This document shows positions 206-8,281 of a DNA stretch of 64,000 bases, piece after piece. Source of the stretch: Candidatus Micrarchaeota archaeon (GTDB taxonomy: Archaea > Micrarchaeota > Micrarchaeia > Anstonellales > Bilamarchaeaceae); contig JBBSVN010000004.1 in NCBI GenBank assembly GCA_038046765.1, positions 130,844-194,843 on the forward strand, in the 5' to 3' direction. The notes below the pieces were generated by a model. That model was not told where the DNA came from and did not search any database. It was given only the letters and a program-made list of their open reading frames with translations. How positions within the stretch are numbered: position 1 is the stretch's first letter; each line of letters opens with the position of its first letter. A program made the position numbers and the translations under genes.

Positions 206-463
206 ATGGTCAAGTATTTAATAGCAAGACAACTTTCGGGTAAGAAAATTATTACCAACGAAGGAGAAGACTTTGGAAGACTGGTTGATTTGAACATAAA
301 TGAACTAACAGGAAAAATAGAGAACTTAATAGTAGAACCAAACCCAGATTCAGTTCTAGCTTCGAAAATGAGAAAAGACGACAGCATGGTAATGGTTCAA
401 TACGAAAGCGTACTAGCAATTGGCGATTATATTATTGTCGAAAAGAGAAACATGACATATTAA
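206..463 (+). CDS. PRC-barrel domain protein
   Basis: LSGKKIITNEGEDFGRLVDL...GKIENLIVEP...VLAIGDYIIV; GGTGA SD 4 nt before ATG at 206. Confidence 0.85.
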   Translation: MVKYLIARQLSGKKIITNEGEDFGRLVDLNINELTGKIENLIVEPNPDSVLASKMRKDDSMVMVQYESVLAIGDYIIVEKRNMTY

Positions 464-1060: not shown

Positions 1061-2095
1061 ATGAAAAAACCTGAGTTATTTGAAAACTCTATTGCAGAAC
1101 TTGCAGGTTTGTGGATAGCTGAAGGGGATGATAAAACTAAGTGGGAAATAACAATTACAAACAATTCACTTGAACTAATAAAATTTTCATACAATGTCTT
1201 AAAGAGACTTTTCAGACCAAAAAATTTTAGAATTTACATTTATTTACCTGAAAAAAGTTGGGTAATAAAAGAACGCTTACCTAAAGCCATTTTAAAATAT
1301 TATATGGATCAAAGAGCAAACAAACCGTATTTTATACTTAGATTCGCAAACGTAATTAAAGTCAAAGAATGGAAACAAATGGTTCAGAAAATATGCTCGA
1401 ATGAAAGATATTACTCAGATATTTTAAGAGGATTCTTTGCAGGGGAAGGAAACATAAAAACAGGAACCCATTCTGATAGAACATTAAGAATGGCTCAGAA
1501 GGAGCCTATACCAGTAATAAACAAAATTTTAGAACATTTCCAAATCGAATGGAAATTTAGTAATAGAGAGCGTAGTTATGTAATAGTTGGAAGAAACAAC
1601 TGGAAAAAACTTGCGGATATCAGAATAGCAGATATGCATCCAATTAAAAAGCAAAAATTTTGGGAAGTTTACGATGGATATAAACAATGGCATTATAAGA
1701 AACACTACATACGAGATAACATTGAAACTTTATTGATTACACCTCTAACATCTAGTGAGCTTGCGATAAAGTTTAATCGAGATCATTCTAGGTTAACAGA
1801 AATATTATGTGAATTAAAGAAGAAGAATAAGGTGCAAATGTTTAAAGTTAGAAGCAAAATCTATTGGTTAAGCATTAACTCTAAGATAATTCCAATTTCA
1901 AAAAGAAAAAGATCGATTCTAGATACTATTAATGTAAAACCAAAAAGAACTTATGAAATAGCACATGAGTTAGGAATAGATCAAAAAGGTGCTTTAAGAA
2001 GATTAAGAGAACTAGAAAAATTACAATTAGTATATCGTGAAGATTACTTTTGGAGCAAGCTTCCGATTCAAAAAGAGGTGTTAGTGTATGAGTAA
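1061..2095 (+). CDS. free-standing double-motif LAGLIDADG endonuclease-like protein with two C-terminal winged-HTH domains
   Basis: Motifs LAGLWIAEGD and LRGFFAGEGN about 110 aa apart; wHTH-like PLTSSELAIKF...ILCELKKKNKV and RTYEIAHELGI...RLRELEKLQLV; no intein Cys/His-Asn ends; stop overlaps the rnhB start. Confidence 0.8.
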   Translation: MKKPELFENSIAELAGLWIAEGDDKTKWEITITNNSLELIKFSYNVLKRLFRPKNFRIYIYLPEKSWVIKERLPKAILKYYMDQRANKPYFILRFANVIKVKEWKQMVQKICSNERYYSDILRGFFAGEGNIKTGTHSDRTLRMAQKEPIPVINKILEHFQIEWKFSNRERSYVIVGRNNWKKLADIRIADMHPIKKQKFWEVYDGYKQWHYKKHYIRDNIETLLITPLTSSELAIKFNRDHSRLTEILCELKKKNKVQMFKVRSKIYWLSINSKIIPISKRKRSILDTINVKPKRTYEIAHELGIDQKGALRRLRELEKLQLVYREDYFWSKLPIQKEVLVYE

Positions 2096-2763
2096 CTATC
2101 TTGTAGGTATTGATGAGACTGGCAGAGAAATTTAGTTTCTTGTATAAGAACTAGAGAACTGTAAGTAGCCTCATTGGTCCATTAGTGATTTGCATGGCAA
2201 CATGTAATCGAGCATATGAAAAGAAATTAGATATGTTGGGGAAAAAAGACTCCAAACAACTATCAGCAAAACAACGCGAGGAAATACTAAAAGAACTGGA
2301 AAAAATTTGCAGTTTCAAATGGATCGCAGTTTCAGCAGTAGACTTAAACAAATTAATGGACACAAAATCATTAAACGAAATTGAAGCAACAGTAATGGCG
2401 TCATTAATCAAACAGGTAAAAGAAGGAGATATAATGATAGATTTACCTGATCGTTATTCGTACACGTTTAAAAGAAGAATGGACAAACTAGGAGTAAAGA
2501 AATTTGAAGCAGAACACAAGGCAGACGAAAATTATCCAATAGTAGCAGCTGCTTCAATTTGTGCAAAGGTTACAAGAGATAAAATGGTTGCTGAGATTAG
2601 GGAAATTATAGGGGACTTTGGAAGCGGATATCCAAGCGACCCTAAAACGATAAAAATGTTAAAAGAAAAGGGATGGATAGAGAAAGCAAAACTATACATA
2701 AGAAGTAAATGGAAAACTTTGGAAAATTTTAAACAAAAAAAGTTGTTTGAAGAAGGAACTTAA
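2088..2763 (+). CDS. rnhB: ribonuclease HII, two exons (2088-2127 and 2165-2763), 212 aa after splicing
   Basis: Joined exons read MSNYLVGIDETGRGSLIGPLVIC...KDSKQLS...HKADENYPIVAAASICAKVTRD...GSGYPSDP; SD GAGGTG at 2075-2080. Confidence 0.92.
2128..2164 (+). other. 37-nt bulge-helix-bulge-type intron in rnhB mRNA
   Basis: Central helix GCAG(2122-2125)/CUGU(2159-2162), bulges AG^A and AA^G, exon-exon helix GAUGAGACUG/UAGCCUCAUU, internal hairpin; removal restores frame and the GRG motif. Confidence 0.85.
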
Positions 2764-6478: not shown

Positions 6479-8281
6479 TTACTTCATTAACAATTTCTCG
6501 TAAGTTTGACGAGTTACACACGCCACCCCGTAACCGACGCCGTGCCCCCTGTTGGCACCGACATCCTGCCCGACGAAGTCGTTCCCGTAGAAGTAACGGA
6601 CCAAAAGACCGGAATATTTTTCAATTCTCCATAAACGTCTTGCGTCTTGATCATATTCATTTGTAGATTTACCAGAAGGAATACCAAATTCATCTTGCTT
6701 ATACCAACCATTTTTTGTGTGTAATTTTATTTCCTTAGTTTTTCCATCCTGTGTTATTACGCATTTTTCTCCATCAAGGTCTACCAATGTTCCAGTCCTG
6801 CAGGGAAATAATCCTAACTTCTGGTATTTCTCCCTTAATTTTGGATTTTGTAAAATCGTATCAATAACTGTGTTTGGTAAGATAACTAAACCTTGTTTTT
6901 CTAATGCAAGAGTTTGTTCTAAGTTTAGGTTTTTATGGACTTGGATTTCTTTACTTGTAAGGTCAAGTTTTGACCAGTCGGCAACTCCAACAGGAGTTGA
7001 CGAACCAAGAACTCCTTGCCAATGATGGGGGTCTAGCATTCCTTTGAATTTACCATTCTCACCATCTTGGAGGAATTTTCTTTCTTCTTGAAGTTGTTTG
7101 AGTTTTGTCTTGTATCTTCTCCTAAAAAGGTTCAAACTAGTTAGAATAACAGAAACAATAAACAGCGTAGTTAATTCTATAGTCGTTATAGGGAGATTTT
7201 TGGCAACTGATACAATAAAAATTATGACAGAATTTAAACTTACATATCCTAAAAGCAAAGGTGCAAAACCAGTTTTTCTAATCCATATTTCTAAATCTTT
7301 AATCTCCTTATCAAGTTTTTCAATTCGTGCCAAAGCAGTTTCCTGTTCTTTTTGAACTGGTTCTAAAGCAACATTTTCATTTACCAAAATGGCTAAAACT
7401 TCTCTTACTTGTGCAGCATTTTGATACCTATTTTTAGGATCAACTTCTAGGCATTTACCAATAATTTTTTCAAACCCCCTAACGGATGCAGGAGCATTAC
7501 CAGAATCAATTGCCTCTTTTAAATCTTCTTTATCCATGCCAGCTAAGAATATTCCAAGTAGTGCGCCAAATGAATAAAGGTCAGCAGATGCTGATACTCT
7601 TTTTGAACCACTAGCTACTTCAGGAGGAGTGCATTCATAATTATTAACTGCCCAAATAGTTGTCCCAGTACTGTTTCTAACCTGAACAAAAGCAAAATCA
7701 ATTAGATAAAGCTTGCCATCTGGAGTTACAATTAAATTTTCTGGTTTGACATCCTTATGAACTATTGGGGGATTTTTACTATGCAAATATTCTAAAATAT
7801 CAAGTAGCTGATTAGCTAAAGAAAGCACCTGATTTTTATCTAAATGAACATTTTCATCTATTAAATGTTTTAATGTTTTACCTTCAACAAAGTCCATCAC
7901 AATATATTGTTCCTGTTCAGTTTGATTTCGATAAGAATCGATTAATTTTGGAATGCCTACGTGATCTGCTTGAGACAAGATATTTATTTCACGCTCGGCT
8001 AGAGCAAAAATTCGATGGTCTTTTACAACGCTTAAACTCATGTCTTTTACTACAACTAATTTTTGATGTGTAATAGAATAAGCAAGATAAACTTCTGCAT
8101 TAACTGATTGTGTTGGGGAATCTTCTTTTTTATCCCTTGAAAGTAGTTTAAGTAAAGAATATTTATTCCCATTAATTATTTTTGTACCAAGAATATGCTC
8201 TGGAACTGGAAGAGGTAGAACTATTTTTGCCTGATCAATAGCAACTAAAGACCTAGTAATAGCTAATCTTGGTTCTGCCAT
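6479..8281 (-). CDS. Hanks-type Ser/Thr kinase with two TM helices and a C-terminal putative DGR target (C-type lectin-like) domain
   Basis: VVVKD, EREINIL, VHKDVKPENL, IDFA, PPE, DLYSFG; two hydrophobic segments; C-terminal domain paralogous to 62442-63083. Confidence 0.88.
   Translation of the reverse strand: MAEPRLAITRSLVAIDQAKIVLPLPVPEHILGTKIINGNKYSLLKLLSRDKKEDSPTQSVNAEVYLAYSITHQKLVVVKDMSLSVVKDHRIFALAEREINILSQADHVGIPKLIDSYRNQTEQEQYIVMDFVEGKTLKHLIDENVHLDKNQVLSLANQLLDILEYLHSKNPPIVHKDVKPENLIVTPDGKLYLIDFAFVQVRNSTGTTIWAVNNYECTPPEVASGSKRVSASADLYSFGALLGIFLAGMDKEDLKEAIDSGNAPASVRGFEKIIGKCLEVDPKNRYQNAAQVREVLAILVNENVALEPVQKEQETALARIEKLDKEIKDLEIWIRKTGFAPLLLGYVSLNSVIIFIVSVAKNLPITTIELTTLFIVSVILTSLNLFRRRYKTKLKQLQEERKFLQDGENGKFKGMLDPHHWQGVLGSSTPVGVADWSKLDLTSKEIQVHKNLNLEQTLALEKQGLVILPNTVIDTILQNPKLREKYQKLGLFPCRTGTLVDLDGEKCVITQDGKTKEIKLHTKNGWYKQDEFGIPSGKSTNEYDQDARRLWRIEKYSGLLVRYFYGNDFVGQDVGANRGHGVGYGVACVTRQTYEKLLMK
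6519..6613 (-). other. putative DGR variable region 1
   Basis: 52 of 80 nt are G/C in 6521-6600; 15 of 27 codons end in C and none in A; ends in GGGGTGGCGTG, shared with region 2. Confidence 0.7.

Follow-up and report, generated by a model that had tools for sequence, protein, structure and literature searches.

How an intron that is too short to encode a nuclease can move between genomes is a question raised by the start of the rnhB gene in a Candidatus Micrarchaeota archaeon. The DNA analysed is a stretch of 64,000 nucleotides (contig JBBSVN010000004.1 of assembly GCA_038046765.1, positions 130,844 to 194,843 of the forward strand; hereafter the window), in which a free-standing open reading frame (ORF) for a LAGLIDADG protein overlaps the start of rnhB, the gene for RNase HII, and rnhB itself is split by a predicted bulge-helix-bulge (BHB) intron. 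In the available text of the sources, the BHB introns of archaeal mRNA counted in 2020 comprised only that of cbf5 and one case in a 5' untranslated region (PMC7714728), and those of the cbf5 type are described as too short to encode a nuclease (PMC2738675). Comparison of the window with its relatives suggests an answer: a predicted homing endonuclease encoded directly before the rnhB start likely spreads with the micro-intron by cutting intron-free rnhB at the codons of the D-E-x-G-R-G motif, where cleavage, target, splicing and direction of spread are all predictions from sequence. The pairing is real and widespread, and on the best reading what would be new is collaborative homing in archaeal chromosomes with protein-spliced micro-introns, homing itself being the predicted part.

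A LAGLIDADG gene overlaps the start of an interrupted rnhB

The locus has a free-standing endonuclease gene adjoining an intron without an ORF in a conserved gene (Table 1), at a distance of 32 nt here and in a layout that recurs in 131 of the 157 loci surveyed below. The LAGLIDADG ORF is bounded in its own frame by two stops and lies within neither an intein nor an intron; the ATG at 1061 gives 344 aa, and an alternative in-frame ATG at 1037 gives 352 aa. A preliminary description of the window had placed the ORF at 1061 to 2164, of which the start stands, whereas 2164 is the last base of the intron and the ORF ends at 2095. Its placing of the ribosome-binding site and start codon of rnhB in the last codons of the ORF holds, with the rnhB ATG at 2088 and the ORF stop 32 nt 5' of the intron.

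Excision of the intron yields a 212-aa RNase HII beginning MSNYLVGIDETGRGSLIGP, and the unspliced rnhB frame meets a stop after 15 codons. In the predicted BHB, 2122-2125 pair with 2159-2162 to make the 4-bp central helix, accompanied by a long stem between the exons and a hairpin within the intron. Its fold z is -2.13 (7 of 200 shuffles fold as well), and it is classed as relaxed because the intron stem begins a few bases off the canonical register. An Rfam search of the locus returned no family. The window's intron position recurs in 17 further genomes of the family, and its genome encodes EndA-family proteins (two genes, C4:18936 and C10:76880) and RtcB. The closest named relatives of both the LAGLIDADG gene and rnhB are from Candidatus Micrarchaeota.

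Table 1. Features of the rnhB locus, numbered from the first base of the window.
Feature	Position	Strand	Basis or remark
PRC-barrel gene, conserved upstream neighbour	206..463	+	Pfam, relatives
LAGLIDADG ORF, free-standing, 344 aa	1061..2095	+	LAGLIDADG domain at about residues 5-210, then two winged-helix domains
First LAGLIDADG motif LAGLWIAEG, predicted catalytic E21 (codon 1121-1123)	1100..1126	+	sequence
Second LAGLIDADG motif LRGFFAGEG, predicted catalytic E129 (codon 1445-1447)	1424..1450	+	sequence
First winged-helix domain, residues 215-273	1703..1879	+	model and structural search
Second winged-helix domain, residues 276-341	1886..2083	+	Pfam HTH, structural search
Shine-Dalgarno-like GAGGTG for rnhB, in the last codons of the LAGLIDADG ORF	2075..2080	+	sequence
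rnhB exon 1, MSNYLVGIDETGR and first base of Gly; holds the D-E pair of the RNase HII active-site motif	2088..2127	+	sequence
Predicted 37-nt BHB intron	2128..2164	+	fold, frame restoration
rnhB exon 2, RNase HII body	2165..2763	+	Pfam RNase_HII E 3.2e-32

The predicted protein has the fold of LAGLIDADG homing endonucleases

Pfam detected LAGLIDADG_3 (E 1.3e-6) and, at the C-terminus, a helix-turn-helix (HTH) domain of the TrmB/MarR type in the LAGLIDADG protein. An AlphaFold model generated from a 50-row alignment reached a predicted local distance difference test score (pLDDT) of 93.9, and a wide structural search matched it to PI-PfuI (Z 16.4, root-mean-square deviation (rmsd) 2.7, 173 aligned residues) and I-DmoI (Z 14.1, rmsd 2.7, 155 aligned residues) and resolved two separate winged-helix blocks C-terminal to the LAGLIDADG pair. 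The top Foldseek rows were the bI3 maturase (E 2.6e-7) and I-DmoI. A profile sequence search of the PDB returned only weak HTH matches (best E 0.043), and so the tie to solved structures rests on the fold. Motifs, Pfam and fold agree with the preliminary description of a double-motif LAGLIDADG ORF with an acid at both catalytic positions, and the structure prediction that it had suggested as a check, together with the structural search, recovers both this fold and its two winged-helix domains.

As in a monomeric LAGLIDADG homing endonuclease, both helices of the fold are present in a single chain, with an acid at the base of each. Among 136 aligned relatives, E21 is conserved in 133, the other three being gaps, and E129 in 135; K25, K88 and K133 are more than 90% conserved in the 50-row alignment. 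A search of the window's own genome found no paralogue of the ORF.

The gene lies before rnhB in relatives from several phyla

At E <= 0.001, 161 homologues of the LAGLIDADG protein were found, with names from Micrarchaeota, Woesearchaeota, Aenigmarchaeota and Nanoarchaeota. A single-protein search of genome contigs gave no match, and an alignment-based search was needed to find the loci; viral contigs gave 114 pattern matches, none of which was confirmed. Of the confirmed loci, 87 in genomes and 191 in metagenomes, 80 from each source make up the 160 studied here, and the two sets partly overlap. rnhB lies directly 3' of the LAGLIDADG gene in 157 of them, and the other three end at a contig edge. 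An insert interrupts the D-E-x-G-R-G codons in 131 of the 157 loci, and 26 are intron-less. Duplicate removal left 137 distinct loci, of which 115 are intron-positive (three hand-read loci were left out) and 22 intron-less. Where the motif began with EE or GA, the locus was scored by eye (L043, L102, L133, L369, L370 and L386). Six late introns called by the splice finder (L197, L199, L206, L207, L209 and L213) were false and were re-scored as intron-less. Records with predicted rnhB introns span DPANN, Thermoplasmata-titled, Altiarchaeota-titled and Nitrososphaerota entries.

The intron occupies four positions, all within 10 nt. Among 128 automatically called loci it lies inside the Arg codon in 104, at the window's position in the next Gly codon in 13, one base into the Arg codon in 10 and after the Glu codon in one. 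Introns of carrier loci measure 20-73 nt (median 31), intron-only alleles go down to 14 nt, and none of 115 introns leaves an open unspliced frame. The commonest position is represented by 113 introns, from loci that have the gene and loci that do not. Of the central helix's two variable pairs, one is Watson-Crick in 88 of these introns and the other in 74, where 5000 shuffles averaged 29 and 31 and never exceeded 46; relatedness inflates these counts, yet many different paired solutions occur. The overall helix pairing of 97% is partly circular, as pairing entered the junction score, and the shuffle test at a fixed position was relied on instead. With a covarying 4-bp central helix, a 3-nt bulge at each of the two junctions, a frame restored on removal, and EndA and RtcB in the host, the inserts have the properties of archaeal BHB mRNA introns, and their splicing is predicted.

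A Shine-Dalgarno-like word precedes rnhB in 81 of 115 loci with endonuclease and intron, versus 23 of 132 loci with neither. In non-carriers the empty site, from the end of the PRC-barrel gene to the rnhB motif, spans 17-112 nt (in the 12 of 15 loci where the pattern found it). The rnhB of 29 of 154 carrier loci (e.g. L028, L063, L070 and L082) has no ATG, GTG or TTG within 12 codons 5' of the motif, and its frame overlaps the stop of the endonuclease gene. This arrangement hints at start codons of an unusual kind, at coupling or at frameshifting. At L459 (G424), L460 (G457), L461 (G392), L052, L069, L073 and L083, the endonuclease frame, truncated or full, continues into rnhB exon 1 with its stop inside the intron. 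Splicing of these loci would yield a fusion of RNase HII to the winged helices or to the endonuclease, and such a fusion may explain why C-terminal remnants of the gene keep an open frame.

The gene and the intron co-occur in random samples

To score co-occurrence, three order-wide samples totalling 475 genomes were used, with the centre genomes left out: the window's own order (175 genomes, the window's excluded), a Woesearchaeota-type order (150 drawn) and a Pacearchaeota-type order (150 drawn). Carriers were defined as genomes with a LAGLIDADG gene or remnant at rnhB. In the pooled samples the intron is present in all 15 carriers versus 34 of 436 non-carriers, in the kind of co-occurrence comparison that the preliminary description had proposed.

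In the own order, 170 genomes have rnhB and 166 could be scored, with the intron in 6/6 carriers (G001, G143, G138, G147, the frameshifted G016 and the internally deleted G032) versus 11/160 non-carriers. These 11 intron-only alleles all share the window's intron position, and sequence reading established 62 of the 149 intron-less alleles, an unbroken Pfam match being the basis for the other 87. The Woesearchaeota-type order (139 scorable) has the intron in 7/7 carriers, three with a full gene and four with a truncated one, versus 23/132 non-carriers, with 30 of the 109 intron-less alleles read from sequence. The Pacearchaeota-type order (146 scorable) has it in 2/2 carriers versus 0/144 non-carriers, with 44 intron-less alleles read; its hand-chosen centre genome is an intron-less carrier. 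Fisher p values, which ignore kinship, are 5e-7, 1e-5 and 9e-5 for the three samples. A class-wide sample around a Nitrososphaerota carrier, scored at the rnhB loci, has the intron in one of 80, with no gene upstream, and includes 30 intron-less loci without the gene.

The gene is sporadic and decays as a selfish element

The LAGLIDADG gene or a remnant is present in only 6/175, 7/150 and 2/150 genomes of the three samples, and on the rnhB tree the carriers lie dispersed between congeners without it. Of 119 distinct loci, 18 have a broken copy of the gene and none a broken rnhB body, which argues against both assembly error and an essential role. Beyond the frameshifted and the internally deleted copy of the own order, decayed copies include four 5'-truncated remnants, and a search 5' of intron-only rnhB alleles found one further remnant (G392) and no others. 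The GC content at third codon positions (GC3) of the gene tracks that of rnhB with a slope of 0.39 and is lower in 21 of 21 GC-rich loci.

Large trees were built with FastTree. At L073 and L083 the rnhB bodies lie near those of L026 and L070, and the endonucleases come from another clade; an endonuclease clade of these four loci was rejected by the approximately unbiased (AU) test (p-AU 3.9e-42, 32 rows), the group having been picked post hoc as the most extreme case. In Nitrososphaerota carriers rnhB is of Nitrososphaerota type, and the endonucleases fall among those of DPANN on an unrooted tree. The window's clade contains 10 endonucleases from several genera, all with one intron position. 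A sporadic and decaying gene, with one group of loci rejected by the AU test, has the life cycle of a selfish element, and the LAGLIDADG gene behaves as such an element and not as a WhiA-like regulator.

Sequence signs at the predicted target

To compare the junction between alleles, the surrounding 30 nt were examined across genera of the window's own family, where identity is 0.81 among intron alleles versus 0.70 among intron-less pairs; deeper in rnhB the two classes are equal (0.52 and 0.49). The intron allele is nearer at the junction to intron alleles of other genera than to an intron-less congener in 10 of 10 comparisons, one of them by only 0.01. Between G147 and its intron-less congener G144, differences are dense up to about +25 of exon 2, beyond which the sequences are 92% identical. 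Such shared flanks fit co-conversion of the sequence around the intron.

Intron-less carriers depart from the D[ED]AGRG motif in 13 of 22 cases versus 12 of 132 non-carriers, and Gly is replaced by Arg or Ala in 4/22 versus 0/132. Only 4 of 22 intron-less carriers combine the canonical motif with AGR as the Arg codon, a combination present in 45 of 74 non-carriers matched for lineage and, after splicing, in 104 of 115 carrier alleles. The difference is consistent with protection through alteration of the site; most intron-less carriers belong to one clade, and so the counts of altered motifs are not independent. Enzymes of these carriers differ at the otherwise conserved D23, D83 and K133. Two intron-less carriers, L045 and L134, are nested among intron-positive ones; their RNase HII motif is changed at three positions (DEARRGPIISV) and their endonuclease branch is longer, possibly reflecting a recent escape from cutting.

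A proposed route of spread and its alternatives

The LAGLIDADG gene overlaps the rnhB start, and 32 nt 3' of it a BHB-shaped insert splits the motif codons. The host splicing endonuclease and RtcB would excise the insert from the mRNA, and RNase HII would still be made. LAGLIDADG recognition sites are usually 14-22 bp long, and the insert is predicted to disrupt the one in rnhB, which would render the carrier's own chromosome immune. Where carrier DNA meets an intron-free allele, a cut in that allele would be repaired from the carrier, copying the intron and, if the repair tract extends about 40 nt upstream, the endonuclease gene as well. Short repair tracts or later decay of the gene would leave the common intron-only alleles, and one lineage, mostly in Pacearchaeota-type hosts, may have dispensed with the intron and rely instead on an altered site or on an enzyme of altered specificity. 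DNA binding or autoregulation would be the contribution of the winged helices.

The collaborative-homing pair suggested in the preliminary description is supported by the comparison in that the gene precedes rnhB in all 157 loci, 131 of them with the intron, in that all 15 random carriers have the intron, and in the decay and partial tree conflict. Several observations weigh against it. The preliminary description had held that an ORF commonly beside intron-less rnhB would refute the pair, and this is partly the case: the gene adjoins an rnhB without the intron in 26 of 157 loci (22 of 137 distinct), where most copies are intact and keep both glutamates, the intron-less state requiring at least nine changes on the tree, most within the one clade with altered motifs. 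Intron-only genomes outnumber pairs in the random samples (34 versus 15), and so the intron persists without the gene. Non-carriers were called intron-less from match tables, and not base by base, in 87, 79 and 100 cases in the three samples. An independent-pairs test on 40 rnhB rows of the window's own family found five pairs, with an average of 4.3 having the intron with the gene and none opposed, which is not significant (p 0.06-0.25). Selection for BHB pairing could account for the shared junction flanks or add to them. The low GC3 of the gene may reflect low expression, and the window's own gap is small (0.24 versus 0.28). Endonuclease and rnhB distances correlate (Spearman 0.54 over 68 loci; L028, whose rnhB branch is aberrantly long, was excluded). 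In the window's own family the endonuclease and rnhB trees do not conflict, so that inheritance with many losses is conceivable there.

The main alternative, possible but rather improbable, is intron-independent ('intronless') homing, in which the enzyme cuts close to where rnhB starts and a carrier is protected by whatever alters the site. The introns would then be resistance alleles that arise repeatedly, are selected wherever the enzyme circulates and are not its partners. Repeated origins, which favour this alternative, are indicated by the four intron positions within 10 nt and by a position that changes at least 12 times on the endonuclease tree; also in its favour are the altered motifs of intron-less carriers, the scarcity among them of the canonical motif with AGR, and the 34 intron-only alleles. 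However, all 15 random carriers have the intron, and the 10 endonucleases of the window's clade keep one intron position over several genera. The intron also sits between the gene and the remaining rnhB, so that any repair that moves the gene from a cut at the motif codons carries the intron too. Collaborative and intronless homing overlap as explanations, and their main difference is which came first.

Two roles without homing have been weighed, the first a very unlikely one in which the protein is a domesticated, WhiA-like DNA-binding factor that controls rnhB or its operon through the winged helices. The layout is WhiA-like, and WhiA is matched structurally with Z 14.6 and 13.5, although the whole-chain rmsd values are 21.3 and 12.8; the gene occupies a single locus throughout, and four truncated copies retain the winged-helix part as an open frame. 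Both catalytic acids are nearly invariant, whereas WhiA is without them according to the available text of one source (PMC3384342). With the acids kept, and a gene that is rare in all three samples and often broken, the WhiA-like role proposed in the preliminary description is unsupported. The second, of which even less is expected, is that of a maturase aiding the folding or splicing of the adjoining BHB intron, as some LAGLIDADG proteins of group I introns do. The bI3 maturase is the top Foldseek row, and gene and intron co-occur; however, this row ties with true endonucleases, 34 intron-positive genomes of the random samples are without the gene, 26 loci have the gene without the intron, and introns that are hairpins of 14-73 nt are suited to the host EndA. 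Collaborative homing is the most likely explanation.

Other LAGLIDADG genes and the generality of the pairing

Genes of another LAGLIDADG family, distantly related to the first and with 46% identity between two of its members, overlap the start of a GTPase-like gene, which we take to be cyclic 2,3-diphosphoglycerate synthetase-like. The GAAGRD-FHN motif of this GTPase-like gene is interrupted by an insert of 19-33 nt that forms a perfect BHB (loci L236, L239, L487 and L485 of genomes G106, G136, G129 and G131). Among 31 GTPase-like loci read (the best 30 of 82 genomes, and G136), four are interrupted and 27 are not. The insert is present in 3/3 carriers of the upstream LAGLIDADG gene, two of which were found via the endonuclease, versus 1/28 non-carriers (G131). 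This pairing is a lead and not a test of generality. On balance, slightly favoured is a general class of archaeal two-part mobile elements, in which a free-standing LAGLIDADG and winged-helix gene before a start codon is joined to a protein-spliced micro-intron that shields the cut site a few codons 3', with separate lineages at rnhB and at the GTPase-like gene. Such elements would be the main route by which ORF-less BHB introns enter and spread in archaeal protein genes, across phyla, leaving intron-only alleles.

A third free-standing family (L233, L234, L235, L237 and L238; near the PCNA gene in several) starts inside a C/D-box-like element with a C box, a D box and a terminal stem (weak Rfam SNORD31 match, E 0.19). 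The element is partly duplicated 5' and 3' of the ORF, as would result from insertion of the gene, together with a replacement copy, into a guide-RNA gene. Another LAGLIDADG-HTH family (L243 of G001, L244 of G106) is convergent with, and abuts, the 3' end of the threonyl-tRNA synthetase gene. In G001, each of two different LAGLIDADG genes has a similar non-coding stretch, about 190 nt long, on its 5' side (L002 1250-1440; 5' of the L243 ORF), perhaps a repeated leader or a small mobile element.

The window's own genome (1.5 Mb) has further free-standing LAGLIDADG ORFs at C5:56809-57780, C1:48438-49064 and C8:43022-43651, and five long ORFs with LAGLIDADG domains that are probably inteins. ARAGORN finds only 12 tRNA genes in it, suggesting that many tRNAs have unusual introns. 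Between the PRC-barrel and LAGLIDADG genes, the minus-strand ORF 607-975 encodes a 122-aa orphan with no Pfam family over the cut-off and no relative either in its own genome or among the fetched loci, and is left out of the proposed mobile element. At 6479-8281 on the minus strand, a 600-aa Ser/Thr-kinase-like ORF with a transmembrane stretch was recognised by eye from its motifs.

With the rnhB locus, the number of predicted mRNA introns grows by well over a hundred, in a repair gene that is conserved, and the pair offers a mobility mechanism for BHB introns that, if true, extends collaborative homing from phages to cellular chromosomes. A literature search of titles and abstract openings, with little subscription content and no supplements, found no description of the rnhB intron or of a free-standing endonuclease paired with a BHB micro-intron, a scope that does not establish absence from print. 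Annotations probably give RNase HII in a truncated form that lacks the catalytic D-E pair in about a tenth of the genomes of the window's order (18/167) and a fifth of the Woesearchaeota-type sample (30/139). The family also provides new LAGLIDADG scaffolds with a predictable target.

Comparison with known systems

Collaborative homing in phages involves self-splicing group I introns and enzymes of non-LAGLIDADG classes, whereas the rnhB pair resides in archaeal chromosomes, has BHB introns of 14-73 nt that are predicted to be protein-spliced, and encodes a LAGLIDADG enzyme with two winged helices for which cleavage is predicted. The layout is the same: in the available text of two accounts, T3/T7-like phages, a cyanophage and ICP1 have a free-standing endonuclease gene beside the first exon of a conserved gene with an ORF-less intron, and cleavage at the intron insertion sequence is said to mobilise both parts (PMC10448857, PMC2988022).

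The BHB intron of cbf5 pre-mRNA in Crenarchaeota is, in the accessible parts of its descriptions, an insert of 16-44 nt that breaks a codon near the start of a protein gene, as the rnhB intron does, and is ascribed to a single ancestral gain with later losses, those parts mentioning no adjacent nuclease (PMC2738675, PMC7714728). The rnhB intron differs in being patchy over several phyla, in occupying four positions and in being tied to an adjacent endonuclease gene, its splicing being predicted. In the 'intronless homing' of T4 seg and mob genes, as far as the available text of one source describes it, an intergenic endonuclease gene lies beside a conserved target and carries the expression signals of the downstream gene, as at rnhB, whereas the enzymes are of the GIY-YIG and HNH families, the genomes are those of phages and the cut sites lie hundreds of bases away (PMC2988022). 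By analogy, it is likely the model for the intron-less rnhB carriers.

WhiA/DUF199 also has a LAGLIDADG pair followed by an HTH, but lacks the catalytic acids (PMC3384342, in its available text) and is conserved across its host group, whereas the rnhB-associated family has the C-terminal HTH, keeps the acids, and is sporadic and decaying. The two-motif fold is common to I-DmoI, I-Tsp061I and PI-PfuI (Z 13.8-16.4, rmsd 2.7-3.9), and by motif register the LAGLIDADG ORF has acids at the positions of D21 and E117 of I-DmoI. These three enzymes are encoded inside an rRNA intron or an intein, whereas the LAGLIDADG ORF lies outside its intron, shares 12-18% identity with them and has two winged helices in addition.

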